A program made the position numbers and the translations under genes. A stretch of 64,000 bases of DNA. It comes from an uncultured Candidatus Saccharibacteria bacterium. GTDB taxonomy: Bacteria; Patescibacteriota; Minisyncoccia; Phycocordibacterales; PALSA-1337. The notes below the pieces were generated by a model. The model saw nothing but the letters and a program-made list of their open reading frames with translations. It was not told the DNA's origin and ran no database searches. The stretch covers positions 7,582-71,581 of the forward strand of contig CAZYES010000001.1 in assembly GCA_964646515.1 (NCBI GenBank). The letters are read 5' to 3'. Positions 8,664 through 45,580 of the stretch are shown piece after piece (the first letter of the stretch is position 1; the number at the start of each line of letters is the position of its first letter).

Positions 8664-8694
8664 TAGGCCAAGTCGTTTAGTGAGGTCGCGCACA

Positions 8695-8703
8695 TGCTAT
8701 ACT
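8695..8703 (+). promoter_or_regulatory. Extended -10 box TGCTATACT, 6 nt upstream of recJ ATG 8710
   Basis: TGCTATACT-ccattt-ATG. Confidence 0.45.
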
Positions 8704-8709
8704 CCATTT

Positions 8710-10533: not shown

Positions 10534-10542
10534 GTCTCAAAA

Positions 10543-10551
10543 TGCTAGTAT
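10543..10551 (+). promoter_or_regulatory. Extended -10-like box TGCTAGTAT, 6 nt upstream of the rnhA ATG
   Basis: TGCTAGTAT-gttttt-ATG. Confidence 0.4.
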
Positions 10552-10557
10552 GTTTTT

Positions 10558-11301: not shown

Positions 11302-11413
11302 ATATGGTCGTAGAGTATGGTCGGGAGATTTCATCTGGATTTGATTTTTTATTTATCAAGATTTTAATCTTTTTTTATTGGGATTTTATCTAAGATGAGT
11401 ACGATTAACTCTC

Positions 11414-12841
11414 ATGAAGAGAGGGGTTTTTGTTTTTTGGAGTATTCTCGTTGCGGTCGCGCTTTTGCGTTTGTGGCAATCTTTCGATGTAAAGGCACCA
11501 GATCTTGGTATATGTGTGGGACAAAACGTCAATGGCACCGGTATAGTTTACGAGGAACCAGAACGCAAAGAAACAGGGCAGATCTTTATGGTGTCTGTCC
11601 ACAGATTGTCTGTTGCTAGCACCTCGGCTGGATGTCGTGGTGATTTTCTTATTCGTCTGAAGACCAAGTTGTATCCTAGGTTTGTTTATGGTGACCTAAT
11701 TGAGTTTAGTGGAAGACTTTCTTTGCCGATTAATTTTGGCGGTGCCACCGGAAGAACTTTTGATTACAAAGGGTATCTGGCCAAAGATGGTGTTTTCTAT
11801 GAAATCAAGAGTGCCACGGTCTCTACCGTAATAACGGGGTCGTCAACCCCCGAAAAGAACGTTGCAAATGATGGAGATTTAATTAAAGGTTTACATGCTA
11901 GTGACAATGGCGCAATTGGTTGGCTAGCTCCTACTCTTTATTCTCTAAAGAGAAACTTTGTAAAAAATTTAGAGAAGATTCTCGGTGAACCTCATGCCGC
12001 TTTGGCTTCTGGACTTGTTGTCGGAGAGAAAGCCGCTCTGGGTAAAGATTTACTGGATGATTTTCGAATAGTCGGGCTTATTCATATCGTCGTTTTATCT
12101 GGTTATAACATCACTATCGTCGGCGATGCCATGAGACGTGCTCTTTCGTTTTTCCCTAGGATCTGGGGAATTGGTCTGGGTGGTATAGGTATTGCTTTGT
12201 TTGGTGTCATGGTCGGCGGAGGCGCAACAGTGGTTCGTTCATGTCTTATGGCCGGCATTGCTTTGTCGGCAGATCTCATTCGCCGCGAATATAACGTTAT
12301 GCGTGCCCTTATTTTTGCGGGATTGGCCATGATAGTCCAAAATCCCATGATTCTTTTGCATGATCCTTCTTTTCAGTTATCATTTTTAGCTACAATAGGA
12401 CTTATATTACTTGCTGGTCCCATTGAGAGGCACCTAAGGTTTGTCCCAAAAAGATTTGGTCTACGTGGCATTGTTGCCTCTACCCTGGCCACACAGGTTT
12501 TTGTCTCTCCTTATATCTTGTACATGATGGGCCAGTTTTCAGTTATCGGGGTAGTCGTCAATATCTTGGTACTACCATTTGTTCCTATGACGATGTTTTT
12601 CGTTTTTGTAGCCGGAGTGGTTGGTTTTATATCGCTTTCTTTTGCACAAGTTTTCGGTTGGATTGCATACTCGTTGCTTTCATACGAATTATTTGTAGTA
12701 CGTCATTTTGCGCAGATGCCATTTGCTTCAGTCCATTTGCCATTATTTTCTGGTTGGTTAGTAGTTGGATTTTATAGCATGTTTTTTCTTATCTTATTAT
12801 TTGTCGCATGGAGAAGGAGAGTGCATGTAATATCACTATGA
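11414..12841 (+). CDS. comEC: ComEC/Rec2 DNA internalisation channel (OB/DUF4131 plus competence membrane domain; no MBL domain)
   Basis: 475 aa with an N-terminal TM, an OB-like region and multiple TM helices typical of the Competence domain. Confidence 0.8.
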   Translation: MKRGVFVFWSILVAVALLRLWQSFDVKAPDLGICVGQNVNGTGIVYEEPERKETGQIFMVSVHRLSVASTSAGCRGDFLIRLKTKLYPRFVYGDLIEFSGRLSLPINFGGATGRTFDYKGYLAKDGVFYEIKSATVSTVITGSSTPEKNVANDGDLIKGLHASDNGAIGWLAPTLYSLKRNFVKNLEKILGEPHAALASGLVVGEKAALGKDLLDDFRIVGLIHIVVLSGYNITIVGDAMRRALSFFPRIWGIGLGGIGIALFGVMVGGGATVVRSCLMAGIALSADLIRREYNVMRALIFAGLAMIVQNPMILLHDPSFQLSFLATIGLILLAGPIERHLRFVPKRFGLRGIVASTLATQVFVSPYILYMMGQFSVIGVVVNILVLPFVPMTMFFVFVAGVVGFISLSFAQVFGWIAYSLLSYELFVVRHFAQMPFASVHLPLFSGWLVVGFYSMFFLILLFVAWRRRVHVISL

Positions 12842-18974: not shown

Positions 18975-20426
18975 ATGAAATTAGACAAATCTTTTTTTGG
19001 AAAGGAATTCAAGTATATTCTCATTCTTACTATTTTGGCCTGGATGGTTTATTCATTGCCACAAGTCAAGGAGTCTATGAGTAGACCGGTTGTTAGCGAT
19101 CCTGCCACAAGCAGTGTGGCGGCAGTAGGAGCGACTTCTGTGGCAACATGCCCCGGGGGATATATCTGTATACCTATTTCTCGGGCCAATAGTTATTGTC
19201 CAGCAGGATATACATGTACTCAAACGGCGACTACTTCACAGCCGTATATTAGTCTGAACGCTTCCTCGACCAATATCGGTCTAGGCCAATCTACAGTCGT
19301 ATTTTGGTCTACGAACAATGTGACCAATTGTGTCGGCACACAGGATGGCGGTGACGAGAAAGTGCCAGCCATATTCAGTGCTCCAGCCACAAGGGGCTCA
19401 TTTACTGTTACTCCATCACAAAGTGTCACTTATACATTGGCATGTTCTTTTGGGACAGTAGGTAAGATGTCAAAGAGTGTGACCATAAATGTGGGGCAAT
19501 ATCAATCATCTTGGCCAAGTTCTATTTCTGCGACTATAAATAGTGCGACTCCACTCAAGGGTCTTGTTCAAATATCAGAAACAGTGCCTACTTCCAATGT
19601 GTCATTGATGGTCTTCAATTTGAAATCGACGAACGGAACATCAACGCTTCGACAGATTAAGCTAAGTGTACAGATGAGCACATCTTCTCCCGATGCACGT
19701 TTATTTAACAACATGAAACTTAAGGCAGGTGGCAATATTTACTCGGCATTTTATATATATGAGCATAATAATATTGCAGATGTTGTATTCTCTGATATGT
19801 CAATAACATTGCCAAGCAATGCCACTGTCGCATTTATCTTAACTGCCGACATAGCTGCGGATTTACAGCGCAGGTTTGACGGTGTTGGTATTCGTGCGTA
19901 TCTTCAAGCAGATAAATCAAGTATATATGCCGAATATGGTGCTCGACAGTTACCAGTAAATATGGCGAATATTACAGGGAATACTCTTACACTTGTTAGT
20001 AATTCTCCTATCGTTAGTAATTTGTCGACCTTGTATGGCGTTCCCACTACTAACGGATATGGCTCTACTACCCAAAAATTTTCTTTCCGCTTTGCGATCA
20101 CGGCTAATGCAGATCCGATCTATTTGTCGAGATCATTGAATAGCGCTATTAGTACTTCAACTGTGCCCAATCCTAGTAATATATTTATTTCCCCTATCAG
20201 CTTTTCTGATACTGATGCGAGTGGCGATGGCCCAGGATATTTATATATTGCTCCTGGCCAAACGAAGACCTTCACTGCTATCTACTCAGGTTCTGGTCAG
20301 AGTTCAGCAGTTGGTACGTTCAACGTAAGTGCTATCAACTACGGAACGTCATCAGATGCTCTTACCTCGGCATCTATAACTTCGTCGCAGATCACCAACG
20401 GATTAAAAGCAGTCTTGTTTCATTAG
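18975..20426 (+). CDS. Secreted or anchored hypothetical protein with paired CPxGYxC motifs and beta-sandwich-like repeats
   Basis: 483 aa; N-terminal hydrophobic segment; CPGGYICIP and CPAGYTCT motifs. Architecture resembles the ORF at 62234. Confidence 0.75.
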   Translation: MKLDKSFFGKEFKYILILTILAWMVYSLPQVKESMSRPVVSDPATSSVAAVGATSVATCPGGYICIPISRANSYCPAGYTCTQTATTSQPYISLNASSTNIGLGQSTVVFWSTNNVTNCVGTQDGGDEKVPAIFSAPATRGSFTVTPSQSVTYTLACSFGTVGKMSKSVTINVGQYQSSWPSSISATINSATPLKGLVQISETVPTSNVSLMVFNLKSTNGTSTLRQIKLSVQMSTSSPDARLFNNMKLKAGGNIYSAFYIYEHNNIADVVFSDMSITLPSNATVAFILTADIAADLQRRFDGVGIRAYLQADKSSIYAEYGARQLPVNMANITGNTLTLVSNSPIVSNLSTLYGVPTTNGYGSTTQKFSFRFAITANADPIYLSRSLNSAISTSTVPNPSNIFISPISFSDTDASGDGPGYLYIAPGQTKTFTAIYSGSGQSSAVGTFNVSAINYGTSSDALTSASITSSQITNGLKAVLFH

Positions 20427-29934: not shown

Positions 29935-30489
29935 ATGTCATACAAAACAATTTACGAACTCAATAAGAACTCTTTTGAAACTTTGAAGACTCCTCTGGCT
30001 ATAGAGAATCCTATGCAGACGCCAAAGTTGGTGAAAGTGGTTGTTTCCAGTAGTTTTGGTTCGATCAAAGATAAAAAGAAGATCGAACTTATTGCCGATA
30101 GATTGGCGAAAATCACTGGGCAGAAACCTGCTGTTCGTGTAGCCAAGAAAGCTATTGCCACATTCAAGACTCGCACGGGCGATCCCATTGGTTATCAAGT
30201 AACTCTACGTGGCAAGCGGATGACAGAATTTTTAGATCGCCTGATTCATATCGCTCTGCCTCGTACCAAAGATTTTCGAGGACTTTCTAGAGATTCAGTC
30301 GATGCCATGGGTAATTTTACTATAGGTATAAAAGAGCATACGATTTTTGCAGAGACTGCTGACGAGGATCTAAAAGATGTTTTTGGCATGGCCGTTACTA
30401 TCGTTACTACCTCTAGCGACAAAAAATCTACTTTAGCGTTTCTCGAGTGTATAGGTTTGCCCCTAAAAAGGGTAGGAGCAAAGAGATAA
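29935..30489 (+). CDS. rplE: 50S ribosomal protein L5
   Basis: 184 aa; LPRTKDFRGL and FGMAVTIVTT motifs. Confidence 0.95.
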   Translation: MSYKTIYELNKNSFETLKTPLAIENPMQTPKLVKVVVSSSFGSIKDKKKIELIADRLAKITGQKPAVRVAKKAIATFKTRTGDPIGYQVTLRGKRMTEFLDRLIHIALPRTKDFRGLSRDSVDAMGNFTIGIKEHTIFAETADEDLKDVFGMAVTIVTTSSDKKSTLAFLECIGLPLKRVGAKR

Positions 30490-30570
30490 TCGATAACCAT
30501 ATTGCTTTATAATACATGGGGCTCTTTTATTTCCCATGAATTGTGATAGTCTGATGAAACGATACTAACC

Positions 30571-31401
30571 ATGATTATTGATGGCCGTGTAACTAGAGAA
30601 GCTTTGTTTCCAGGACTTGAGCGAAGAGCCCAGGCGCTTTCTTTTAGACCGACATTGGCGATCGTCCAAGTGGGCAATAGACCTGACTCCACAGCTTTTA
30701 TTCGTGCCAAGAGGGCGTTTGCCAAGAGGGTTGGTGTCAACGAGAAACATATACAGGTGCCAGAAAATATTTCACAGAACGAACTTATTGATATTATAAA
30801 GAAATGTAATATTGATCTTTCTATTCATGGGATAATAATACAGTTACCTTTGCCTATACATATTGGAAGGGACACGGTAATCGATGCCATAGATCCGAAA
30901 AAAGATGCCGACGGTTTGACTGCTACCAATGTGAAACTTTGGTTAGAAGGCAGAGAAGATTGCATAATGCCCGCTACGGCTCGAGGTATCAAACATTTAC
31001 TGAATTATTACAAGATAGATCTATTTGGCAAGCACGTAACAGTTGTCGGTCGCTCGATGCTTGTAGGTAAGCCGATTGTCGCTATGTGCTTGAATGAAAA
31101 TGCCACAGTTACAGTTGGTCACAGCAAAACCAAACATCTTGCAGAGGAGACAAAAAATGCGGATGTTTTGGTTGTGGCTGTTGGAAAACCGGGTTTAATT
31201 GATGAAAAGTATGTAAAGAAGGGGCAAGTTGTTATTGATGTTGGCATTAGTCGCACCCAGGACAACAAACTTATTGGTGATGTTGATTTTAATTCAGTTT
31301 CAAAGAAAGTATCTGCCATTACTCCCGTACCAGGTGGCGTTGGTCCCATGACGGTATTTTCATTATTTGAGAATCTTATTGGTCTATGTGAGAAATGGTA
31401 G
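30571..31401 (+). CDS. folD: Bifunctional methylenetetrahydrofolate dehydrogenase/cyclohydrolase
   Basis: IIDGR N-terminus, GIIIQLPLP, VVGRSMLVGKP, TPVPGGVGPMT motifs. Confidence 0.93.
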   Translation: MIIDGRVTREALFPGLERRAQALSFRPTLAIVQVGNRPDSTAFIRAKRAFAKRVGVNEKHIQVPENISQNELIDIIKKCNIDLSIHGIIIQLPLPIHIGRDTVIDAIDPKKDADGLTATNVKLWLEGREDCIMPATARGIKHLLNYYKIDLFGKHVTVVGRSMLVGKPIVAMCLNENATVTVGHSKTKHLAEETKNADVLVVAVGKPGLIDEKYVKKGQVVIDVGISRTQDNKLIGDVDFNSVSKKVSAITPVPGGVGPMTVFSLFENLIGLCEKW

Positions 31402-31480
31402 AGGCCTATATTGGCTTATTTGCTCTATAATCAATAAGACGATACCATGTATTTATTATTAATAATTTATATTAAACAAT

Positions 31481-32266
31481 ATGAATAACATACCTGAAAA
31501 TTTTTGGAAGTTAGCTCGAGTCCTGACTGTTGTTTTGATGGTACTTCTGGCTGTAGTGGCGATAAAAGAATTCAAAGCTATTGGTTACGTTGGTGCCAAT
31601 CCAAATATGATGAATACGATTACGGTAGATGGCAGTGGAGATGTCGTGGCAATGCCTGATCTTGCAACCTTTTCATTTACGGTGACTGAAAATTCCAAGA
31701 CTGTAGCGGAGGCCCAAGCCAAGCAAGCAACCAAGGTTAACGCTGCTCTGAAAGCTGTACGGGATAGTGGTGTGGCTGATAAAGACATAAAAACACAGTC
31801 TTACAGTATAAATCCGCATTATGAATACCAAAATAGTGTTTGTACAGCCTATAGTTGTCCTCCTTCAAAGTCTATTTTGACTGGGTACGATGTGAGTCAA
31901 AGTATTCTAGTTAAGGTGCGCGATCTTGAAAAAGCCGGAGCGTTGTTTACTTCAATAGGTTCGCTCGGCGTAGACAATGTTGGCGGTCTTGATTTCTCTG
32001 TTGATGGTCCAGACACCATAAAAGCTCAAGCTCGTAGGGAGGCGATCAAGGACGCGCAAGCCAAAGCCGATGAATTGGCAGAGCAACTAGGCGTACGTTT
32101 GGTCCGTATTACCAGTTTCTACGAATCCGGCAACCCCACTCCGATAGTCTATGGTATGGGCGGAGCAAAAGATGAAGTAGTTAGAGTGCAAACAGCCACG
32201 CCGGAAGTACCAACAGGAGAGCAAAAAGTGACGAGTAATGTGACGATTACTTACGAAATAAAATAG
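31481..32266 (+). CDS. SIMPL/DUF541 family secreted protein
   Basis: 261 aa; N-terminal TM/signal; family-like pattern (TQSYSINP, coiled C-terminal region with AKADELA). Confidence 0.7.
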   Translation: MNNIPENFWKLARVLTVVLMVLLAVVAIKEFKAIGYVGANPNMMNTITVDGSGDVVAMPDLATFSFTVTENSKTVAEAQAKQATKVNAALKAVRDSGVADKDIKTQSYSINPHYEYQNSVCTAYSCPPSKSILTGYDVSQSILVKVRDLEKAGALFTSIGSLGVDNVGGLDFSVDGPDTIKAQARREAIKDAQAKADELAEQLGVRLVRITSFYESGNPTPIVYGMGGAKDEVVRVQTATPEVPTGEQKVTSNVTITYEIK

Positions 32267-32379
32267 ATCTGGCTTTGAGATCACGGCCGATTTAATGTGA
32301 GCAGTAGTTGCCAATAAGGTGGTTGTTATTTTTGCGTAGACTGTGTATATTTTGGGGTAGAGCTTTGAAATTTTGAATT

Positions 32380-32913
32380 ATGAAAACTATATATGTCTAC
32401 TTTGGCAATGTTGCTACGCTTAGTCAGACACAAAGAGAGGTTCTTGATCAACTCCAACGTCACTTGGAATATAGTCTGAATAAAGGTTGTATCCCAGATA
32501 ATACGTACTGTGAGTTAGTAATGGCCAATTCAGTACTTGTTAGTGGCGGTGGTTCTAATGGTCAATATCAATCTTGGCAAACCAATCATATTGTTTGTGA
32601 CGGCCTGATTGTTGTGCCAGTGTGTCCGTGTGATATAAAGACGGTGATCGAAGCCGAGGTCGCTGTTTCTGGGATCACTCCTCCTGATGCCGTAGTCGAT
32701 GATTACGGTCGCTTCAAGAGGCCGATACCTGTAGTAGATTTCTGTTTTGGCAGAAAGGCCAATGCGATGATCGAAATCCATGCCAATAGGGATTTCCATT
32801 TACAGTGCAAGGCTAGTTCGTTTGAACTTGTACCTGAGGCAAATGTTGAAAAATTGGCAGAAGAAGTTGCCCAAAAGTATCGCAGGTTTGCTGACTTCTT
32901 CTGTGCTTGCTGA
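32380..32913 (+). CDS. Hypothetical Cys-rich protein (orphan)
   Basis: 177-aa ORF with about 10 Cys (VCPCD, C-terminal FFCAC), no motif I recognise, and its own strong terminator. Confidence 0.55.
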   Translation: MKTIYVYFGNVATLSQTQREVLDQLQRHLEYSLNKGCIPDNTYCELVMANSVLVSGGGSNGQYQSWQTNHIVCDGLIVVPVCPCDIKTVIEAEVAVSGITPPDAVVDDYGRFKRPIPVVDFCFGRKANAMIEIHANRDFHLQCKASSFELVPEANVEKLAEEVAQKYRRFADFFCAC

Positions 32914-32932
32914 TATAGGCACCTGTCTCCTG

Positions 32933-32962
32933 AGCGCGTTTGTGATAACGCGCTTTTTGTTT
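32933..32962 (+). terminator. Intrinsic terminator
   Basis: Perfect 8-bp stem AGCGCGTT / AACGCGCT, 6-nt loop, then TTTTTGTTTG. Confidence 0.75.
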
Positions 32963-33050
32963 GATACTCTGGATGTGGCTGTCTGGGTGGTGTCTGATTG
33001 GTTCCGGATACATTTTGTATTCATTAACAAATCTAACCCAACACATCTCC

Positions 33051-33079
33051 TTGACTTTGTAGTTAAGGGGGTGTATATT
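33051..33079 (+). promoter_or_regulatory. Sigma70-type promoter for secE-nusG-rplK
   Basis: TTGACT (33051-33056), 17-nt spacer, TATATT (33074-33079). Confidence 0.6.
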
Positions 33080-33098
33080 TCTCCACAAGTTATCCCCA
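33079..33098 (+). promoter_or_regulatory. Two tandem near-consensus DnaA-box-like 9-mers at the predicted transcription start
   Basis: TTCTCCACA (33079-33087) and TTATCCCCA (33090-33098), each 1 mismatch from TTATCCACA. The second overlaps a CCCC/GGGG hairpin plus T6. Confidence 0.3.
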
Positions 33099-33128
33099 GC
33101 AGGGGTTTTTTAATAAAATAGAAATATC

Positions 33129-33305
33129 ATGAAAATCATCGAGTATATCAAAGAGACAAGATCGGAAATGAGCCATGTTAATTGGCCGACTAGACAACAG
33201 ACTATCAGATTTACTGCTCTTGTTATTATTGTCTCATTGGCAGTGGCGGCTTTGCTTGGGGTCTCGGATTTTGTGTTCTCAAAGCTACTCACATTACTAT
33301 TCTAA
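33129..33305 (+). CDS. secE: Preprotein translocase subunit SecE
   Basis: 58-aa ORF not in the track: MKIIEYIKETRSEMSHVNWPTRQQTIRFTALVIIVSLAVAALLGVSDFVFSKLLTLLF. The E..KV.WP motif, a single TM and the position before nusG all fit SecE. Confidence 0.85.
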   Translation: MKIIEYIKETRSEMSHVNWPTRQQTIRFTALVIIVSLAVAALLGVSDFVFSKLLTLLF

Positions 33306-33353
33306 TTAAAAATACAAGCTTACGTTTTGAGTCTTTGTATACTTATCTTATAT

Positions 33354-33899
33354 ATGACCAAACAACATACAACAGGCGAGCGGAATTGGTACGCGATACA
33401 CACATACGCGGGTTATGAGAATGCTGTTGCCCGTAATCTCAAACAACGTATCGAGTCTTTGGGTATGGAGGACAAGATTTTTAATGTAATCGTGCCGACT
33501 GAAAAAAAATTCAAGATCAAAAATGGCAAACGAGTAGAGGAAGAAGAGAAAATCTATCCCGGTTATGTCTTGGTAGAAATGATTGTTACCGATGATTCTT
33601 GGTATATAGTACGCAATACTCCAAGGGTTACAGGTTTTGTCGGTGCCGGTATATCGCCAGTACCACTTGATGATCGTGAGGTGGCTACCTTATTTGATCG
33701 TATGCAAAAAGGTAATACAGAACATTCTATTGATCTTATCCAAGGAGACTTGGTCAAAGTTGCCGATGGCCCATTTAAGGATTTTGAAGGCAAAGTCGCT
33801 GAAGTTGATACGCAGAGAGGCAAGATCAAAGTTCTAGTATCGATGTTCGGCAGAGAAACACCCGTGGAGCTCGACTTCTTGCAAGTTAAAAAAGTTTAA
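33354..33899 (+). CDS. nusG: Transcription termination/antitermination factor NusG
   Basis: NWYAIHTYAGYENAV NGN domain; KOW motif GDLVKVADGPFKDFEG. ORF track starts at upstream TTG 33327. Confidence 0.93.
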   Translation: MTKQHTTGERNWYAIHTYAGYENAVARNLKQRIESLGMEDKIFNVIVPTEKKFKIKNGKRVEEEEKIYPGYVLVEMIVTDDSWYIVRNTPRVTGFVGAGISPVPLDDREVATLFDRMQKGNTEHSIDLIQGDLVKVADGPFKDFEGKVAEVDTQRGKIKVLVSMFGRETPVELDFLQVKKV

Positions 33900-33916
33900 T
33901 ATAATATCCACTTACT

Positions 33917-34339
33917 ATGGCAAAAAAAATTATCAAGAAAGTAAAGGTTATTGCTCCAGCAGGGAAAGCTACCCCAGCCCCACCATTGGGGCCAACGCTT
34001 GGTCAAGCGGGTGTCAACATAGGTGACTTTACCAAGAAGTTTAATGATGCTACCAAAACAATGGTTGGTGACATGATACCTGTGCTCATCACTGTATATG
34101 AGGACCGTACATATAGTTTTGTTTTGAAGACTCCTCCTGCTTCAGCCCTTATTTTAAAGGCGCTAAAACAAGAAAAAGGCTCAGGTAAACCGAATACCAA
34201 GAAGATTGGCTCAATTACCAAGGCACAACTCAAGGATATTGCTGAGAAAAAGATGCAAGATCTGAACGCAAATACAGTAGAGATGGCGATGAAAATAGTG
34301 TCGGGATCTGCCAAATCCATGGGGGTAGAGATAAAATAG
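33917..34339 (+). CDS. rplK: 50S ribosomal protein L11
   Basis: [22 protein letters not shown] motif. Confidence 0.96.
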
Positions 34340-34361: not shown

Positions 34362-34871
34362 TTAGTGATTTATAGCAACTTCATACTCCAATAGAATTGT
34401 TCCACTTTCTGTTTTTTGCAGGTTGATTAATTTCAGCTTAAAATCCATCTCTTTCTGAAATAATTTTATTCCGCTTCCGAAAATAACTGGCTCGATTGTC
34501 AGGTACATTTTCTTTACCAGTCCAGACTCCATAAACATCGTATAGATCTGTGAACCACCACAGATAGCGATTTCTTTGTAACCACGCGCTTCAAGATCTT
34601 TGATAAGGTCAATGGGTGATTTGGCGGTGATTTCGACACCGGCCGGTAGATCATGTAGAGGCGTTGGTGAATATACTATATTTAGTCGATCTTTCAGGGG
34701 TTTATTGAGAGTGAGCCAAGTATTCTGGCCCATGACGACAACGCCCGCGCGTTTAGTTATTTCCACAAATCTTTTCTTGTCTTCTTTACTTGTCCACGTG
34801 GCGGTATGGGTAGAGTTTTTGCCAATATATCCGTCTGCGGTTAAGGCGGCGGTTATGAAACAAGTGATCAT
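34362..34871 (-). CDS. Dihydrofolate reductase family protein
   Basis: 169 aa. The patterns ITAALTADGYIG, VVVMGQNTW and KPLKDRLNIVYS align with DHFR/RibD-C family motifs. Confidence 0.7.
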   Translation of the reverse strand: MITCFITAALTADGYIGKNSTHTATWTSKEDKKRFVEITKRAGVVVMGQNTWLTLNKPLKDRLNIVYSPTPLHDLPAGVEITAKSPIDLIKDLEARGYKEIAICGGSQIYTMFMESGLVKKMYLTIEPVIFGSGIKLFQKEMDFKLKLINLQKTESGTILLEYEVAINH

Positions 34872-34875
34872 GTAA

Positions 34876-35505
34876 TTATATTTTATGTCTTTCTTTTAGT
34901 GTTTTTATATCTCCTTTGTTGATTAGATCAATTTCGTCCTGCTCCTCCATCATTATGCCTTCGATAATGTCTTTTTTGTGATACTTGCTTGGTTTTGGTT
35001 TTACTTCGTTTTTTAATTCCTCGAATACTACTTGGCAAAGGCGCTCGCCGGGGAAGAGGCGAACAGCCTGAGAGCGAGTGTTGTTTCTTATGGGAAGTAC
35101 CAATTGACCATCGTAGCCCGCATCAATAATGCCCGTTAGATCTAGCGATAGACCTTTTCTATTGGTTGATGAGCGGGGATACAGGACGCCCATAATATCG
35201 TTCGGCATCTTTATCGATTCAAGTGTCGAGACTAATATATATTCACTGGGTAAAAGGTCAAAATATTGGCCCTGTTCCAGTTCCACGACGTCGAAATATT
35301 CATGATTACGTTTGTCAAAATGTGTTATATCGAGCGATTCGCGTCCGCGTGGGGTCATATGCCACATTTTTGGCAACATGAACGTGTAGCCCAAACGGAG
35401 GTCTACAGAGTGTTCTTGTAATTGGAATTGGTCGAGATTGGGCTTGAAAATGAGGTTGCCAGATTCCACGAGTTTCGTTATTTGTTTTTTAGTAATTATT
35501 GACAT
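34876..35505 (-). CDS. dCTP deaminase/dUTPase-superfamily protein lacking the Dcd catalytic Glu (probable dNTP pyrophosphatase)
   Basis: Dcd-like N-terminus (SVDLRLG) and PRSSTNRKGL. IIDAGYDGQLVLPIRNN aligns with E. coli Dcd RIDPGWSGCIVLEFYN, putting Pro at the Glu138 position, and resembles dUTPase motif 3. Confidence 0.7.
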   Translation of the reverse strand: MSIITKKQITKLVESGNLIFKPNLDQFQLQEHSVDLRLGYTFMLPKMWHMTPRGRESLDITHFDKRNHEYFDVVELEQGQYFDLLPSEYILVSTLESIKMPNDIMGVLYPRSSTNRKGLSLDLTGIIDAGYDGQLVLPIRNNTRSQAVRLFPGERLCQVVFEELKNEVKPKPSKYHKKDIIEGIMMEEQDEIDLINKGDIKTLKERHKI

Positions 35506-35551
35506 GACGGAGATATGAGATTGAAATTGGGAATAAAGACAAAATTTTTAA

Positions 35552-36388
35552 TCAAAGTATTAATTTCAGGCCCTTTATTGGTTCCATAGGATTATACTGC
35601 TTTGAAAGGTTTTCTACTATCTCGTCCAAAAGTTTTGGGTCTTTCTCTTCTGCTCTGTCAAATGAGTCCTGTGGAAGTCTCAGTTCGATCATCGGGTGAT
35701 CGTTGGTCCTTTGGATCAATTCTTGGGCACCTTCATAATGTGAGTCATAAATGTGCGCATTGGAGATTGAATGAGAGTAAATACCTGTTTTAACCCCAAG
35801 TTTTTGTGCTAGCATACATTGGAGTAGCGCAAAACCTGATACATCCGCTGAGAAACCAAGCATTACGTCGTTGGAGCGAACGATATTATGCAGATGTAGA
35901 CGTCCGGCGACAATATTAACTGTAAATGTGTAGGGACAAGGTACATTTTTCTTTTTTATCAAAGAAAGACCGTCTTGGGCTGGATCCCAAGTGACAACCA
36001 CGGCTTGTCTGGAGCTCGATTCTTTTTCTAACAATTTAACGAGCAGGCCCAGTTGGTCACGTCCGAAATGCTTCCTCCATCGGTATCCGTAGGCGACGGT
36101 AACGACGTCTCCTGGATTGGTAAAGTCATCCCAAATGTGTGTATAGTTGCGTAGAAAATCTTCCGGCTTCCTGGACCCGGAAATGAACCAGATCTGTTCG
36201 GCGACGAACATCTTGATAGGTGATTTTCGCAAAGTGAGTATGGGGAAACCATCTTTCTCTATATCTAGTTGGAAATGCACGCCGACCTTGACTCTGGTTT
36301 CATGCCCCGTACGTTCGCTAAATTCAACCATGCCATTTTTCATAATATCATGTACGATGTTTTGGTATATTTGGTCGAACTTGGTCAT
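35552..36388 (-). CDS. Thymidylate synthase / dCMP hydroxymethylase family enzyme with Asp at the pyrimidine-specificity position
   Basis: Collinear with ThyA (ERTGHET, DGFPILT, IWD, YGYRWR, catalytic Cys in VPCPYTF, AHIY). RSNDVMLGFSADVSGFALL aligns with ThyA RSCDVFLGLPFNIASYALL. Confidence 0.8.
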   Translation of the reverse strand: MTKFDQIYQNIVHDIMKNGMVEFSERTGHETRVKVGVHFQLDIEKDGFPILTLRKSPIKMFVAEQIWFISGSRKPEDFLRNYTHIWDDFTNPGDVVTVAYGYRWRKHFGRDQLGLLVKLLEKESSSRQAVVVTWDPAQDGLSLIKKKNVPCPYTFTVNIVAGRLHLHNIVRSNDVMLGFSADVSGFALLQCMLAQKLGVKTGIYSHSISNAHIYDSHYEGAQELIQRTNDHPMIELRLPQDSFDRAEEKDPKLLDEIVENLSKQYNPMEPIKGLKLIL

Positions 36389-36444
36389 GAGAATATCATT
36401 GTATATAATTACCGAGAGATTAACAATCTCGTATTCTAAAAATA

Positions 36445-36951
36445 ATGTCGCAAATTATTGAAAGTAGTGTCATGCAATATCCATATCTCCCAATAGGGAG
36501 GGCAATACAATATGTGCCAGCTAGCAATCGATTCATGGTTGAAGCCACACGGCTCCGAAATGAATGTTCGACTGATATCCACCATCCAACTGGCGCTGTT
36601 GTTGTTAAAGATGGCAAGATTATTGGTCGGGGAGCGAATCAATCGTCAATTAAGAGTAAAAAGTTGTTGGCCTTCCATAGGGATAAGTTTTGCATGAGGC
36701 GTTTTTTGAAGGTTTCTTCTGGTCATAAGTATTGGCTATGTCCTGGATGCGCATCATCCAAGCATCATGCCGAAGCGAGGGCAGTCAGAGATGCTCTAAA
36801 AACAAATAAATTATTAGTTGCCGGTGCCGACTTATATCTCTGTGGCCACTGGTGGTGCTGTAAGCCGTGTTGGGATGTTATGATAGGGGCGGGTATCAGA
36901 AATGTTTATTTGATTAATGATGCCAAGATGATGTTTGAGTTGAAAAGATGA
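36445..36951 (+). CDS. dCMP deaminase (ComEB / cytidine-deoxycytidylate deaminase family)
   Basis: HAE zinc motif (KHHAEARAV), CKPC (PCxxC-type) motif, extra Cys cluster CMRR...CPGC as in dCMP deaminases. Confidence 0.8.
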   Translation: MSQIIESSVMQYPYLPIGRAIQYVPASNRFMVEATRLRNECSTDIHHPTGAVVVKDGKIIGRGANQSSIKSKKLLAFHRDKFCMRRFLKVSSGHKYWLCPGCASSKHHAEARAVRDALKTNKLLVAGADLYLCGHWWCCKPCWDVMIGAGIRNVYLINDAKMMFELKR

Positions 36952-37001
36952 TTGGCGATTCGAAACATCGTTAGCGGACCGAGTAACCGTTAGTAAAAAT
37001 C

Positions 37002-37655
37002 ATGAGTCGCGGGATAAAAAACAAAACAAAGTTTATTGCCATAGAAGGGGGAGAGGGCTCTGGAAAGTCCTCTCTTCTTATTGCGCTCAAAGAAGTTTTG
37101 GGAAACTCGATTGTCTTGACTCGAGAACCTGGGGGTTCGCCATATGCGGAAGCCATACGTATGGCTACGCTCAAGAATCCTCTGGCCAAAACCGCGCCAG
37201 CTGAGACGACACTTTGTCTCATGTTTGCGGCTCGATTTGATAATACAGTTAATATGATAGTACCAGCTTTAAAGTCTGGATTGCCTGTAATAGCTGACCG
37301 TTTTGACGCTTCCTCTTATGCTTATAATGTTATAGCGCAATCGGACGGCGCGCTTGAAGATGTTTTTTGGAATTTACGAGAGAGATTGGCATCCGTTCCA
37401 GATCTTTATGTTTTTGTTGATGTTGATCCGGAGGAAGGTATTCGTCGAGCATATTCACGCAACCAGTCATTGCTCAAAGATCAGCAGTATGACCACTTCG
37501 ATGATCGCGAGATAATATTTCACAAAAAAGTTAGAAGTGGATATGTAAAATTTCTCAAAAAAGTACCACATGTGATTATCGATGCCAATCGTCCTTTTGA
37601 TATGGTAAAGAGGGATTTTATCTTGGAAATCAAAAAACAGTTGAAGATGTCCTGA
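37002..37655 (+). CDS. tmk: Thymidylate (dTMP) kinase
   Basis: P-loop IAIEGGEGSGKSS, TREPGGS, DRFDASSYAYN motifs. Confidence 0.88.
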   Translation: MSRGIKNKTKFIAIEGGEGSGKSSLLIALKEVLGNSIVLTREPGGSPYAEAIRMATLKNPLAKTAPAETTLCLMFAARFDNTVNMIVPALKSGLPVIADRFDASSYAYNVIAQSDGALEDVFWNLRERLASVPDLYVFVDVDPEEGIRRAYSRNQSLLKDQQYDHFDDREIIFHKKVRSGYVKFLKKVPHVIIDANRPFDMVKRDFILEIKKQLKMS

Positions 37656-37710
37656 TTTCCATTAGGAAATGTTTGACTTCCATAGTCATGGTAGATCTTT
37701 ACTCTTTTTG

Positions 37711-37719
37711 TGTTAGGAT
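37711..37719 (+). promoter_or_regulatory. Extended -10-like box TGTTAGGAT, 6 nt upstream of the glyA ATG
   Basis: TGTTAGGAT-ttactt-ATG. Confidence 0.35.
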
Positions 37720-37725
37720 TTACTT

Positions 37726-38943
37726 ATGAAAGATACACAATTAAAAAGACTTATAGATGCGGAGAAAAAGCGTCAGAAAAAAGTAGTCAATTTGATAGCT
37801 TCTGAAAATTACGTATCTAAAGATGTTTTGAGTGCACTTGGTTCGGAATTGACCAACAAATATGCCGAAGGATATTCTGGCAAAAGATACTATGGTGGCA
37901 ATGAGATCGTTGACAAGATCGAGGATTTATGTAAAGACAGGGCATTGGAATTGTTTGGTTTGGACAAAAATGAATGGCATGTCAATGTCCAGCCATTGTC
38001 TGGATCACCAGCCAATCTTGCCGTCTATACAGCTTTGATACCACAGGGAGGAAAGATTATGGGGATGTCATTGGATCATGGTGGTCATCTCACTCATGGT
38101 CACAAAGTTTCCGCCACTGGCAAGTTTTGGGTACAAGTTCCTTACGGATTGGATAGGACTACAGAAGTTTTGAACTATGATCAACTTCGTGATAAGGCAA
38201 TGTTTGAAAGACCGGCTATTATCGTTGCTGGTTATACTGCATATCCTAGAATTATTGACTGGGCCAGGATGAGAGAAATAGTTGATGTTGCAAACAATAT
38301 AGGTACCAAGTCCAATAGCCCACTTCTAATGGTAGACATGTCTCACATTGCTGGGTTGGTCGCTGGTAATGTATATCCCTCGCCTTTTCCTTATGCTGAT
38401 ATTGTTACCACTACGACCCACAAAACACTTCGTGGTCCGCGTGCGGCATTGATTTTTGTGAAAAAAGACGCGCGTGAGCTTGACAAGAAAATCGATAAAG
38501 CAGTTTTTCCTGGTTTACAGGGTGGACCACATATCAACCAAATAGCCGGAGTTGCGGTGGCGTTGAGGGAAGCCAAGATGCCCTCATTCAAGAGGTATGC
38601 TTCGCAAGTAGTGAAGAATGCCGCAATCTTATCTGAAGAACTGCGCACTCGTGGCTGGCGTCTGATTTCTGGTGGAACAGATTCACACCTAGTTTTGGTT
38701 GATACTTGGAACGATGGAAAGAAAAATGATCATGGCTCAGGCGGTGTCTCTGGTAAAGAAGCTAGCGATAGATTGGAAAGAGAGGGGATTATTGTTAATA
38801 AGAACGCTATACCATTCGATTCGAGACCGCCAGCTGATCCTTCGGGAATAAGATTGGGTACGGCAGCCGAGACAACTAGGGGGAAAAAAGAGAAAGATTT
38901 CAAAAAAATCGCAGAGAGAATCGATAAGATTTTGAAAAAATAA
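37726..38943 (+). CDS. glyA: Serine hydroxymethyltransferase
   Basis: 405 aa; LIASENY, GYSGKRYYGG, TTTTHKTLRGPR (PLP Lys) motifs. Confidence 0.96.
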   Translation: MKDTQLKRLIDAEKKRQKKVVNLIASENYVSKDVLSALGSELTNKYAEGYSGKRYYGGNEIVDKIEDLCKDRALELFGLDKNEWHVNVQPLSGSPANLAVYTALIPQGGKIMGMSLDHGGHLTHGHKVSATGKFWVQVPYGLDRTTEVLNYDQLRDKAMFERPAIIVAGYTAYPRIIDWARMREIVDVANNIGTKSNSPLLMVDMSHIAGLVAGNVYPSPFPYADIVTTTTHKTLRGPRAALIFVKKDARELDKKIDKAVFPGLQGGPHINQIAGVAVALREAKMPSFKRYASQVVKNAAILSEELRTRGWRLISGGTDSHLVLVDTWNDGKKNDHGSGGVSGKEASDRLEREGIIVNKNAIPFDSRPPADPSGIRLGTAAETTRGKKEKDFKKIAERIDKILKK

Positions 38944-41899: not shown

Positions 41900-44800
41900 A
41901 TGAATCCAGTTAATGTGGAGAAAAATAATATAGAGGATAAGAAAATTGCAAAGACATCTCACGCCGAACGCGAAGAGCGCATTTTGGCTTTTTGGAAAGA
42001 GAATCATATTTTCGAAAAGTCTTTGACCAAACCGTCGCCAAAAGGTGAATACATTTTTTATGATGGTCCACCATTCGCCAACGGTTTACCTCATTATGGC
42101 CATCTACTTGCCGGGATTATCAAAGATGTTGTGCCAAGATTCAAGACTATGCGAGGTTATCATGTTCCAAGACGCTGGGGTTGGGATTGCCACGGTCTAC
42201 CAGTGGAAAATTTGGTTGAAAAAGAGCTTGGGCTGAAAAGTAAAAAAGACATTGTCAATTACGGTATTGAAAAATTCAATGAGGTAGCGCGCCAGAGTGT
42301 TATGCGTTATGCCGATGAGTGGAGAACGATAGTTCCGCGCTTGGGACGTTTTATCGATATGGATTCTTCCACAAACTCAGGCAAGGGGCATGATTATCGT
42401 ACCATGGACGCCTCTTACACGGAGACGGTCTGGTGGATATTCAAGCGGTTACATGACAAACATTTGATTTACGAAGGTTTCAAGTCTATGAATCTGTGTC
42501 CACGGTGCGAGACGACACTTTCGAACTTTGAGGTGGCACAGGGATACAAAGACATCACGGATATTTCCGTTACGGTTAAATTTAGAGTTAAAGATGAAAA
42601 ATTTGGGGGCAAAGACAGTTCAGACACATTCTTGTTGGCGTGGACAACGACTCCGTGGACTTTGCCAGGTAATGTTGCTCTGGCAGTTAATTCAAAAATT
42701 GATTATATAAAAGTTAGAATTGCCGAACAGGGCACTTTTATTCTTGCAAAGGACAGATTGTCGATCTTAAAAGATGCCAAATATGAAGTTGTCGAGACGA
42801 TTCGAGGTACAGCACTTATTGGAATAGGTTACGAACCATTATTTGACTACTATTCAAATAATACAAATCTTAAAGATCGTGCCAATGGTTGGAAAGTATA
42901 TGGCGCAGATTTTGTGACTACAGAAGACGGGACAGGTATCGTTCATATTGCTCCAGCTTTTGGGGCCGATGATTATATGTTATTGCAAAGATATAAACTT
43001 CCATTTGTCCAACACGTTACGACTGACGGCAAGTTCAAGAAAGAGGTTTCTGATTTCTCGGGAATGAGCGTGAAACCAATCGATACTAAAGATGAAAAAG
43101 ATGCTCATCAAAAAGCAGATGTAGAGATTATCAAATGGTTGGCGCACCACGATCTTTTATTTGCAAAAGAGAAATTGATCCACTCATATCCGCACTGTTG
43201 GAGATGCGATACGCCACTTTTGAATTATGCCTCTTCTTCATGGTTCGTGAAAGTGACAGACTTAAAAGGTAAATTAGTGGCGGAGAATAAGAAAGTTACT
43301 TGGGTACCGCCAGAGGTTGGTGAGGGTAGATTTGGTAATTGGCTCGAGGGGGCTCGTGATTGGGCGATCTCTAGAAGCAGGTTTTGGGGAGCACCAATAC
43401 CAGTGTGGAGAGAGGAATATCTGGAAAAAGATGGTAAAAACCTGTCGGCAGGTAAAACCAATTATAGAGCTGATGGTGATACGGAAAAGATTCACGTTGT
43501 TGGTTCAGTCGAAGATTTGAAAAAATACAGTAAAGCCAAAAATACCTATTATGTAATGAGACATGGTGAAGCAGAGAATAATGAAAAAGGTGTGCTCGAT
43601 GGTTCTGTATCGTCAGTTTTCAGATTGACCGATAAAGGCAGACAGCAAGTTGCCGATTCAGCTAAAAATTTCAAGAAATTACACGAAGATGTACTTATTG
43701 ATCTAGTCATTGTGTCGCCAATACTACGGACCCGCGAAACAGCCGACATTTTCATAGAGAACTTTGGGCTTACCAAAGATAAGATAGTTATTGACGAGCG
43801 TATCCGAGAGTACGATCCTGGCATTCTTGATGGTCACAAAATATCCGAATTAAAAGATATCATCAATGGCCAGGATAGGTTCACGTGGAAACCAGACGGT
43901 GGAGAGAATTATCAAGATATCAAAAAACGCATGGGAGATTTCCTGTATGAAATGGAAAACAAATATTCCAATAAATCAATCTTGATCGTTACGCACGAGA
44001 CACCGGCCTTACTCCTTTTTTCTTCGGCTTACGGACTGACTCTCTCAGATACCAAGTCTTTGCGCCCTTCCGGAGATTTCATCGCCAATGCAGAGATTCG
44101 GAAATTGGATTTTACGCCCCTACCGCACAATGATAGGCATGAACTCGATTTGCATCGACCATTTATCGATGATCTTCAGTTGAGGACGGACGAAGGTAAT
44201 AGGTTGGTTAGAGTGCCAGATGTATTCGATTGTTGGTTCGAATCGGGAGCCATGCCATATGCGTCAAATCATTATCCTTTTGAGAATGTTGGCTTTGAGC
44301 CAAAGCCCGGACCATTTAAAAAACCCAGAGGTTATCCTGCGGATTTTATTGCCGAAGGGCTAGATCAGACCAGAGGTTGGTTTTATTCGATGATGGTTTT
44401 GGGTGTAGCACTTTTTGGTAAGACTCCTTATAAAAAAGTCATCGTAAATGGGCTGGTTTTGGCGGAAGATGGTCAGAAGATGTCCAAACGCAAACAGAAT
44501 TATCCAGATCCGATGCGATTGGTAGACAAATATGGCGCAGATTCTCTCAGATTTTATCTTCTTTCATCTCCAGTGGTACATGGCGAGGATCTTTGCTTTA
44601 GCGAGAGGGGAGTTGACGAAGTCACAAAGAAGATAGTCAATCGATTGCTCAACGTAGTCTCATTTTACGAAATGTATGTCGGCGGGCTGAAGGCTCGTGA
44701 TATATTATCTAAAGTCAGCTCTAGTAATGTTCTTGACTTGTGGATATTGAACAGACTCAACGAGACTATCTCCATAGTAACAAAAGCGCTTGAAGCAGGT

Positions 44801-45580
44801 GAGCTAGATAAAGCAGTGAGGCCATTTATGGATTTTACAGATGATCTTTCCACTTGGTATATTCGACGCTCTCGTGACAGATTCAAGGCTCTTGCCGACA
44901 AGACAGCAAAAGTCGATTATCCTAATGATGAGGACAAAGACTCGGCACTTGCTACCACTTGTTTTGTGCTACTGACAACCGCAAAAATACTAGCTCCATT
45001 TATGCCTTTTTTGTCGGAAGAAATCTATTCGAGAGTTGGTGGTGATCTAGAGTCGGTACATCTCGAAGAATGGCCGACGGCGAATGCGGTCGATTCAACA
45101 TCGATCGGCTCCATGAATATAGTACGAGGCATTTCTTCCAAGGCGTTAGAGGCGCGCATGAAGGTGAAGATAAATGTGAGACAACCACTTGCAAAATTGA
45201 AAGTCAGAGACACAAATCTAAAGGATCTGGGCGCATCGCTTATTGGTCTGATCAAAGACGAAGTAAATATCAAAGAAGTATCTTTTGATTCCACTATTGT
45301 GAATGATATAGAATTGGACACAGTTATTACCCCTGAATTGAAGGAAGAGGGCATAGTCCGTGAGCTGATTCGTATTATCCAAGATTTGCGTAAGAAAAAA
45401 GGATTGACCATGAATGATAGGGTGGTGCTTTTCGTCGGCACCGATAATGTGGGAAAGGATCTGGTTGAAAAGAATCGTTCGAAGTTGATGGCCACGACGT
45501 CGCTAAGAGAGATAAAATATGACGGCACCGGTTCTGAAGAATTTAGGATTGGTGACTTGGTCTTTAGGCTATCTATATAA
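41900..45580 (+). CDS. ileS: Isoleucyl-tRNA synthetase (type 2-like) with an inserted histidine-phosphatase-superfamily domain
   Basis: HYGH signature (PPFANGLPHYGHLL), editing-domain motif TTPWTLPGN, KMSKR. Residues ~550-746 carry RHGEAENN, SPILRTRETA, REYDPG and VTHETP motifs between VGSVEDL and DLHRPFID. Confidence 0.92.
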   Translation: MNPVNVEKNNIEDKKIAKTSHAEREERILAFWKENHIFEKSLTKPSPKGEYIFYDGPPFANGLPHYGHLLAGIIKDVVPRFKTMRGYHVPRRWGWDCHGLPVENLVEKELGLKSKKDIVNYGIEKFNEVARQSVMRYADEWRTIVPRLGRFIDMDSSTNSGKGHDYRTMDASYTETVWWIFKRLHDKHLIYEGFKSMNLCPRCETTLSNFEVAQGYKDITDISVTVKFRVKDEKFGGKDSSDTFLLAWTTTPWTLPGNVALAVNSKIDYIKVRIAEQGTFILAKDRLSILKDAKYEVVETIRGTALIGIGYEPLFDYYSNNTNLKDRANGWKVYGADFVTTEDGTGIVHIAPAFGADDYMLLQRYKLPFVQHVTTDGKFKKEVSDFSGMSVKPIDTKDEKDAHQKADVEIIKWLAHHDLLFAKEKLIHSYPHCWRCDTPLLNYASSSWFVKVTDLKGKLVAENKKVTWVPPEVGEGRFGNWLEGARDWAISRSRFWGAPIPVWREEYLEKDGKNLSAGKTNYRADGDTEKIHVVGSVEDLKKYSKAKNTYYVMRHGEAENNEKGVLDGSVSSVFRLTDKGRQQVADSAKNFKKLHEDVLIDLVIVSPILRTRETADIFIENFGLTKDKIVIDERIREYDPGILDGHKISELKDIINGQDRFTWKPDGGENYQDIKKRMGDFLYEMENKYSNKSILIVTHETPALLLFSSAYGLTLSDTKSLRPSGDFIANAEIRKLDFTPLPHNDRHELDLHRPFIDDLQLRTDEGNRLVRVPDVFDCWFESGAMPYASNHYPFENVGFEPKPGPFKKPRGYPADFIAEGLDQTRGWFYSMMVLGVALFGKTPYKKVIVNGLVLAEDGQKMSKRKQNYPDPMRLVDKYGADSLRFYLLSSPVVHGEDLCFSERGVDEVTKKIVNRLLNVVSFYEMYVGGLKARDILSKVSSSNVLDLWILNRLNETISIVTKALEAGELDKAVRPFMDFTDDLSTWYIRRSRDRFKALADKTAKVDYPNDEDKDSALATTCFVLLTTAKILAPFMPFLSEEIYSRVGGDLESVHLEEWPTANAVDSTSIGSMNIVRGISSKALEARMKVKINVRQPLAKLKVRDTNLKDLGASLIGLIKDEVNIKEVSFDSTIVNDIELDTVITPELKEEGIVRELIRIIQDLRKKKGLTMNDRVVLFVGTDNVGKDLVEKNRSKLMATTSLREIKYDGTGSEEFRIGDLVFRLSI

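Follow-up and report, generated by a model that had tools for sequence, protein, structure and literature searches.

A divergent thymidylate and folate gene cluster

The 64-kb stretch of DNA analysed here (the window, along which all positions are counted) is a chromosomal segment of a Paceibacteria-type bacterium of the Candidate Phyla Radiation (CPR, Patescibacteria). Positions 34362-38943 hold six open reading frames (ORFs) in two divergent sets, one encoding a dihydrofolate reductase (DHFR), a Dcd-like protein and a thymidylate synthase (TS) homologue, the other a deaminase, the kinase Tmk and GlyA. An earlier reading made from the letters alone (the sequence-only reading) had described six adjacent genes in this arrangement, and the description held: the coordinates of all six ORFs agreed, and a Pfam scan matched every one of them to the family that had been named. 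FolD, assigned to folate one-carbon supply, lies 3 kb upstream and is only loosely linked to the cluster. The features, with their best family matches, are the following.

30571-31401, plus strand: FolD, methylene-tetrahydrofolate (THF) dehydrogenase/cyclohydrolase (THF_DHG_CYH_C 1e-60, THF_DHG_CYH 2e-29)
34362-34871, minus strand: DHFR, Thermotoga-type (DHFR_1, PF00186, 4e-17)
34876-35505, minus strand: Dcd-fold protein without the deaminase Glu (Pro138) (DCD, PF22769, 1e-34)
35552-36388, minus strand: TS-family enzyme of the Xp12 type, predicted dCMP C5-methyltransferase converting methylene-THF (CH2-THF) to dihydrofolate (DHF) (Thymidylat_synt, PF00303, 4e-52)
36389-36444, between the two sets: divergent intergenic region of 56 bp with promoter-like hexamers on both strands (consensus matches alone)
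36445-36951, plus strand: divergent CDA-fold zinc deaminase, predicted 5-methyl-dC nucleotide deaminase (dCMP_cyt_deam_1, PF00383, 5e-13)
37002-37655, plus strand: dTMP kinase, Tmk (Thymidylate_kin, PF02223, 2e-31; TIGR00041, 120 bits against a cut-off of 83)
37726-38943, plus strand: serine hydroxymethyltransferase, GlyA (SHMT, PF00464, 5e-154)

Active site of the TS homologue

The residues of the TS homologue were placed by HMMER alignments to solved TS structures and by MAFFT alignment with E. coli ThyA and T4 gp42, and the results agree. The catalytic Cys146 is kept (VPCPYTF). Relative to the E. coli enzyme, Asn177 is replaced by Asp (RSNDVMLGFSADV against RSCDVFLGLPFNI), His147 by Pro and Arg127 by Gln, which bears out the substitutions picked out in the sequence-only reading; the Asp of T4 gp42 falls in the same alignment column as Asp177. 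Further active-site changes are Trp83 to Phe, Gln165 to Val and Leu143 to Asn. The Asn177 of ThyA (uracil specificity) is absent together with His147 and Gln165, the corresponding residues being Asp177, Pro147 and Val165. The residues needed for the chemistry and for binding of phosphate and deoxyribose are kept, namely Arg21, Glu58, Trp80, Tyr94, Arg126, Arg166, Ser167, Asp169, His207 and Tyr209.

The same positions were followed in a set of orthologues comprising 80 sequences from 80 species genomes, the best 80 of 321. Asp177, Asn143, Phe83 and Asp169 are each found in 80/80, Pro147 in 77/80, and all 80 have Val or Ile at position 165. The invariance of Asp177 indicates that it is neither a chance substitution nor an alignment artefact, and it co-varies with Pro147, Val/Ile165, Phe83 and Asn143. 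When scored against the eight NCBIfam ThyA equivalogs, the protein fell far below the cut-off of seven (136 against 327 bits, for example); the eighth, TIGR03284, gave 115 bits against a cut-off of 108.

Asn177 is the known uracil determinant of TS, and the engineered mutants N177D (E. coli) and N229D (L. casei) switch to dCMP. The natural Asp177 enzymes that were found to have been tested, T4 gp42, MilA, the Xp12 TS and the 5-hydroxy-dCMP (5hodCMP) synthases, all act on cytosine nucleotides. Diagnostic residues have been proposed within the family: N177D denotes dCMP as the substrate, L143D/E a hydroxymethyl product (T4, MilA) and D169N a 5-hydroxy product (PMC13326640). The marks of a hydroxymethylase, an acidic residue 143 and an open site without the ThyA lid, are missing from the present enzyme. 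Residue 143 is Asn, and in the alignment the C-terminal YNPMEPIKGLKLIL coincides with the ThyA lid YDPHPGIKAPVAI, a feature missing from T4 gp42. The D169N mark of 5-hydroxy-dCMP synthases (RB69/DLP3 type) is likewise missing, Asp169 being retained.

A linked gene points in the same direction. The DHFR, whose best solved relative is the T. maritima enzyme (1cz3, 4.8e-30 over 155 residues), is encoded in the same orientation as the TS homologue, and DHF is formed only in reductive methylation. Together with this DHFR, a residue 143 that is not acidic, the retained Asp169 and the ThyA-like lid favour a methylase over a hydroxymethylase, and we argue for a putative DHF-forming dCMP C5-methyltransferase.

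Relation to the Xp12-type enzymes

Among 1.84 billion representative proteins, 12,947 relatives of the TS homologue were found. The correlated signature recurs in nearly all of the top 150, and the Leu143/His147/Asn177 type appears only from an E-value of about 1e-35. Among 138 aligned TS-family sequences, 121 have Asp177, 107 of these together with Asn143, and all 17 with Asn177 have Leu143. The best matches in sequenced phages are Pamexvirus and its relatives (PaMx74, PaMx28, AAT-1, ZQG1 and Xanthomonas phages), at 35-39% identity. The TS homologue shares with the Xp12 enzyme the insertion and motif WDPAxDGLxxxxxKNVPCP, which is absent from ThyA and T4 gp42, as well as the motif AYGYRWRxHFGRDQL. 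Asp177, Asn143 and Asp169 are identical in the enzymes of Xp12, PaMx74 and ZQG1.

Alignment and phylogeny had been named in the sequence-only reading as the check on its claim. Asp stands at the specificity position, and in a neighbour-joining distance tree without support values, with query and Xp12 about 35% identical, the CPR clade and Xp12/PaMx74 lie inside an Asn143/Asp177 clade, outside of which are T4 gp42 and canonical ThyA. The Xp12 TS homologue produces 5-methyl-dCMP (5mdCMP) in vivo, as determined by liquid chromatography-mass spectrometry, as do five of seven metagenomic Asp177 homologues, and the DNA of PaMx74 and Xp12 contains 5-methylcytosine (5mC) in place of C (bioRxiv 10.1101/2024.12.05.627091). 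Xp12 is assigned to the genus Pamexvirus in one paper and to Bosavirus in its GenBank record.

Gene fusions were found among the Asp177 representatives: a dCMP-deaminase domain is joined to the TS domain in one protein (P0138) and a PRA-PH pyrophosphohydrolase in another (P0159). A third (P0171) has an HNH endonuclease domain ahead of TS.

The Dcd-like protein

In alignments with solved Dcd and DCD-DUT enzymes, the segment LVLPIRN of the Dcd-like ORF falls on their LELFN or LEFYN segment. At the position of the catalytic Glu138 (E. coli numbering), the query and all orthologues compared (76/76) have Pro; Ser111, Arg115 and Asp128 are kept. The loop DLTG-IIDAGYDGQ, which precedes Asp128, has one residue fewer than its counterpart in Dcd and matches motif 3 of E. 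coli dUTPase, NLVGLIDSDYQGQ. Both peculiarities, the Pro and the dUTPase-like motif, had been noticed from the sequence and were reproduced against the solved enzymes. Since the catalytic Glu is replaced, the protein should not be a deaminase and is probably a dCTP and/or dUTP pyrophosphatase. We know of no sequence rule that separates hydrolysis of dCTP from that of dUTP in the Dcd fold.

By score, the protein resembles Dcd. It reaches 118 bits against the cut-off of 92.8 for TIGR02274, 'dCTP deaminase', the name used in public records, and 52 bits against 130 for the dUTPase model NF002598. Scores are highest against bifunctional or monofunctional Dcd enzymes (2e-19 for 4xjc). When its AlphaFold2 (AF2) model (pLDDT 71.8) was searched with Foldseek, TM-scores of 0.7-0.87 were obtained to the Dcd and DCD-DUT enzymes of E. 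coli, M. tuberculosis and B. halodurans. The archaeal Dcd-fold dUTPases 8y1w and 9ln0/9ln3, which have no Glu either, superpose on the model too, and the model shows a helical C-terminal extension of about 35 residues. T4 gp56 was considered as a homologue and rejected, as no meaningful alignment was obtained; gp56 is an all-alpha MazG-type enzyme.

The deaminase and the linked kinase

The deaminase is a divergent, CPR-restricted subfamily of the CDA fold and is not recognisable as a ComEB/DCTD type, as judged from its sequence. Its invariant residues are the zinc motifs H108-A-E110, C139 and C142 and a second cluster, H78/C83/C99/C102 (His/Cys3). All of the 296 homologues found that bear a taxon name belong to CPR/Patescibacteria. 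The best sequence matches in the PDB are RibD (3.6e-5) and TadA, and the ComEB model TIGR02571 gave 24 bits against 219. The closest folds to the AF2 model (pLDDT 85.6) are the dCMP deaminases of human, PBCV-1, S-TIM5 and T4, at TM-scores of about 0.5. The earlier label of dCMP deaminase holds for the fold and the H-A-E/CxxC motifs, but the protein is very divergent.

Phage deaminases encoded beside Asp177 TS genes are often 5mC-selective and have been proposed to supply thymine nucleotides; a purified one acts on 5mdCTP rather than 5mdCMP. The CPR deaminase matches the deaminase domain of the P0138 fusion in the zinc motifs alone and, as it also has no significant similarity to the Xp12 deaminase, cannot be placed with any assayed 5mC-selective deaminase. 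The genes for the deaminase and Tmk are co-oriented, and Tmk keeps its FAAR motif, the Arg of which reads thymine O4. This co-orientation and an ordinary Tmk with the FAAR motif favour deamination at the level of the monophosphate.

Conservation of the cluster

With a 10-sequence TS alignment as query, loci were scanned across the GTDB species, each represented by a single genome. Relatives of the TS homologue turned up in at least 321 of these genomes, and the best 80 all have Asp177. Synteny was counted in these best 80 loci with 8-kb flanks; their genomes belong to Taylor-, Kaiser-, Adler-, Colwell-, Nomura-, Vogel- and Liptonbacteria and other Paceibacteria-type CPR. Of all genes in the neighbourhood, that of the TS homologue is conserved best (65-87% identity, median 71%). 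In 77 of the 80 loci the order is deaminase(-)/TS(+)/Dcd-like(+), and the other partners are GlyA (64/80), DHFR (43/80), Tmk (38/80) and FolD (35/80).

No relative above 48% identity was found in IMG/VR. Outside the CPR set, the nearest TS clusters (38-51% identity) lie on viral or phage-like contigs, two of which carry the whole triad: the IMG/VR viral contig IMGVR_UViG_3300033074_001185 (L098) and the phage-like metagenome contig JAWVHB010010884.1 (L096). In both, the TS has Asp177, the deaminase is a CDA-fold protein of the CPR type, and Pro occupies the Glu138 position of the Dcd-like protein (LVLPL / LVLPI). These two contigs may come from phages of CPR bacteria with 5mC in their DNA.

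Chromosomal setting

The window contains ribosomal-protein operons, EF-G/EF-Tu, secE-nusG-rplK, several aminoacyl-tRNA synthetase genes, recA, ftsK, comEC and recJ. Its G+C content is 39-43%, with no local shift at the thymidylate cluster, and the cluster is flanked by ribosomal-protein, nusG/secE and aminoacyl-tRNA synthetase genes. A prophage or recent island origin was considered and rejected: the composition is flat, the flanks are housekeeping genes, gene order is kept across 80 species and IMG/VR holds no close relative. The strong conservation of the TS gene, the absence of a compositional anomaly and the nature of the flanks suggest a core gene. No second thyA, no thyX, dut or ung and no DNA methyltransferase gene was found within the 64-kb window, and no glycosyltransferase or other tailoring genes lie near the cluster. 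An Rfam scan of the whole window found no family at gathering score, the THF riboswitch included, so that no tRNA, riboswitch or leader RNA was detected.

Near 36416-36430, the intergenic region between the TS and deaminase genes contains an inverted repeat of 6 bp, GAGATT-AAC-AATCTC. A palindromic element, AATTATATA(T/C)AAT, stands immediately before the TS start and recurs in many of 63 orthologous intergenic regions; from its sequence it may represent face-to-face -10 boxes or an operator.

Upstream of the cluster (29935-34339), the ribosomal-protein genes end after rplE and are followed by folD, a SIMPL-family gene and a Cys-rich ORF of 177 aa (32380-32913) with no Pfam match; secE-nusG-rplK comes next and directly abuts the thymidylate cluster. 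A 483-aa ORF between fusA and tuf (18975-20426, plus strand) also has no Pfam match. The isoleucyl-tRNA synthetase (41900-45580, plus strand, 1226 aa) has a histidine-phosphatase domain (PF00300, His_Phos_1) inserted between two tRNA-synt_1 segments. Farther upstream, at 8680-12841, the genes for the single-stranded DNA exonuclease RecJ and the DNA uptake channel ComEC are close together, a proximity compatible with salvage of deoxynucleoside monophosphates from imported DNA as a source of dCMP.

A predicted route to thymidylate through 5-methyl-dCMP

Gene identities, residue substitutions and their invariance, synteny and the relation to the Xp12 clade are direct observations, from which the substrates below are predicted. 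Our preferred interpretation, to which we give a probability of roughly 55%, is that thymidylate would be made from dCTP by way of dCMP and 5-methyl-dCMP, a predicted route free of dUMP. It appears somewhat more probable than its negation that the module is the housekeeping thymidylate set of a Paceibacteria-type CPR bacterium, with the usual order of methylation and deamination inverted. The Glu-less Dcd-fold enzyme would hydrolyse dCTP, and probably dUTP too, to the monophosphate; salvaged dCMP would be an alternative source. The Xp12-type TS homologue would methylate dCMP, not dUMP, at C5 with 5,10-methylene-THF and release DHF, a step to which the signature residues, the clade and the linked DHFR all point. 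The CDA-fold deaminase, transcribed divergently, would turn the 5-methyl-dC nucleotide into a thymine nucleotide, as conserved synteny and the phage precedent suggest. Tmk would phosphorylate dTMP, and the folate cycle would be closed by DHFR, by GlyA, which regenerates CH2-THF, and by FolD. Because methylation of dCMP precedes deamination in these steps, dUMP would not be an intermediate.

The sequence-only reading centred on a cytosine-type TS that receives its substrate from a pyrophosphatase and works together with a deaminase, a kinase and folate recycling; the evidence favours this view, and of the outcomes proposed there dTMP formation via 5-methyl-dC nucleotides is the best supported. 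To our knowledge, every described cellular thymidylate route passes through dUMP (ThyA or ThyX). A literature search found a thymidylate route via 5-methyl-dC described in no CPR or other cellular organism, although its coverage may be incomplete.

Several findings weigh against the proposed pathway. The specificity of the TS is deduced from its residues and from relatives in phages whose identity to it is only about 35%. In the characterised examples that were found (8y1w, 9ln0), a Dcd-fold enzyme without the Glu is a dUTPase, and a dCTPase activity would be an extrapolation. The CPR deaminase resembles dCMP deaminases weakly and shows no significant similarity to that of Xp12. DHFR is absent from the 8-kb flanks in 37 of the 80 loci. 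Moreover, should the TS accept dUMP, the six genes, with the Dcd-like protein as dUTPase and the deaminase acting on dCMP, would also make up the canonical dUMP route.

Alternative explanations

The possibility was considered that the pathway is conventional, that is, that the Dcd-like protein acts as a Dcd-fold dUTPase, dCMP is deaminated to dUMP by the deaminase and a divergent ThyA methylates dUMP in spite of Asp177. All six genes fit the Gram-positive-type sequence of dCMP to dUMP to dTMP, the known activity of Glu-less Dcd-fold enzymes agrees with it, and the TS passes PF00303 and, narrowly, TIGR03284, with the catalytic residues for methyl transfer all present together with the C-terminal lid. 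However, Asn177 is the residue that determines uracil specificity and its mutation to Asp switches the enzyme to dCMP; cytosine nucleotides are the substrates of every natural Asp177 enzyme for which a test was found; four other active-site changes, common to the Xp12 TS, co-vary with Asp177; the protein scores far below the cut-offs of the other seven ThyA models; and the deaminase is not of the standard ComEB/DCTD type. We regard this explanation as unlikely.

It is also conceivable that some or all of the 5-methyl-dCMP is converted to 5mdCTP and used for DNA modification, with the Dcd-like enzyme depleting dCTP and the deaminase merely diverting a share to dTTP; like Xp12, the bacteria would then have 5mC instead of some or all of their C. 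The module is a functional copy of that of Xp12/PaMx74, whose phages replace all C by 5mC, the TS relatives nearest to the query (43-51% identity) are found on viral or phage-like contigs that also encode such a deaminase and a Dcd-like protein without the Glu, and the action of the purified phage deaminase on 5mdCTP implies a pool of that nucleotide. On the other hand, a kinase dedicated to 5mdCMP is not apparent, the one in the cluster being an ordinary Tmk above the dTMP-kinase cut-off, and cells, unlike phages, must still make thymidylate; the cluster is built around Tmk, GlyA and DHFR. A literature search found no report of CPR DNA globally substituted with 5mC, which is weak evidence, and we know of no precedent for full replacement of C in a cellular genome. 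On balance, this use of the module is distinctly unlikely. The stronger version, in which 5mdCTP also enters replication while the Dcd-like enzyme removes dCTP, so that the chromosomes of Paceibacteria-type CPR would carry 5mC for much or all of their C, must be called decidedly unlikely; these would be the first cells with nucleotide-level base replacement of the phage Xp12 kind.

A different C5 product, 5-hydroxymethyl- or 5-hydroxy-dCMP destined for a hypermodification pathway, is suggested by the fact that Asp177 is common to T4 gp42, MilA and the 5hodCMP synthases. However, residue 143 is Asn, as in Xp12, instead of the Asp or Glu of hydroxymethylases, Asp169 is kept where the 5hodCMP synthases have Asn, the C-terminal lid is present, the linked DHFR would be unneeded by a non-reductive hydroxymethylase, and the vicinity has no glycosyltransferase or tailoring genes. 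This product is highly improbable. Of the proposal in the sequence-only reading, 5-methyl- or 5-hydroxymethyl-dCMP synthesis for DNA modification, the hydroxymethyl half is thus disfavoured by residue 143, the lid and the DHFR, and the half that places 5mC in DNA is a possibility, if an unlikely one.

If the predicted route through 5-methyl-dCMP is correct, a whole class of bacteria makes thymine nucleotides via 5-methyl-dC nucleotides, and a phage DNA-modification module and core cellular metabolism have an evolutionary connection. For these CPR bacteria the dUMP/dUTP problem (dUTPase, uracil in DNA) would take another form, and pre-replicative 5mC in a cell would become directly testable. 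The CPR proteins are publicly annotated as 'thymidylate synthase', 'dCTP deaminase' and 'deoxycytidylate deaminase'; these three routine annotations would be functionally wrong in hundreds of genomes, along with the metabolic models built on them. Furthermore, the CPR-restricted deaminases are new candidates in which to look for 5mC-selective enzymes of use in methylome sequencing.

Comparison with known systems

The canonical pathway, in which Dcd/Dut or ComEB leads to dUMP and ThyA, FolA, GlyA and Tmk follow, shares with the CPR module its folds, its folate cycle and its end product. It differs in that the CPR TS has no Asn177, His147 or Gln165, the Dcd has no Glu, the deaminase is atypical and the predicted order of steps is swapped. 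The engineered TS mutants N177D (E. coli) and N229D (L. casei) show that a single residue can switch the enzyme to a dCMP methylase; in the CPR enzyme, by comparison, the Asp is natural, invariant and accompanied by further active-site changes. The archaeal Dcd-fold dUTPases (P. furiosus P45, 9ln0/9ln3; T. pacificus, 8y1w) are pyrophosphatases with the Dcd fold and without the Glu (Met in 9ln0), and their motif-3 Asp (Asp128) is kept in the CPR protein. However, identity to them is about 26%, and the CPR protein is nearer to Dcd by score and carries the C-terminal helical extension.

The sequence-only reading had likened the cluster to the T4 set of dCTPase (gp56), gp42, cd and gp1. The logic of a pyrophosphatase leading to a cytosine-specific TS homologue, with a deaminase and a kinase, is indeed shared, as is the Asp at the specificity position. 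However, gp42 has Asp143 and Thr147, has no C-terminal lid and makes hydroxymethyl-dCMP without DHF, and the CPR kinase is an ordinary Tmk and not a gp1-type dNMP kinase. The analogy to gp56 is functional only, because gp56 and the Dcd-like protein do not align.

The closest known system is not the T4 set but the module of Xp12 and PaMx74, also found in ZQG1, in which an NTP pyrophosphohydrolase, the TS homologue (5mdCMP synthase), a dCMP-deaminase homologue and DHFR are encoded side by side. The TS signature is the same (Asn143, Pro147, a hydrophobic residue 165, Asp169, Asp177 and the WDPAxDGL...KNVPCP insertion), and so is the role proposed for the deaminase in the phage work, the supply of thymine nucleotides from 5-methyl-dC nucleotides. 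The differences are that TS identity is about 35%, that the CPR deaminase belongs to another, CPR-restricted subfamily and that the pyrophosphatase is a PRA-PH or HAD hydrolase in the phages and a Dcd/dUTPase-fold protein in the CPR. The Xp12-type enzyme seems to have been tested so far only from viruses that replace C with 5mC, and from metagenomic homologues. In the phages, the genes form an early module, whereas in the CPR they are a core chromosomal cluster with Tmk and GlyA, present in at least 80 species.

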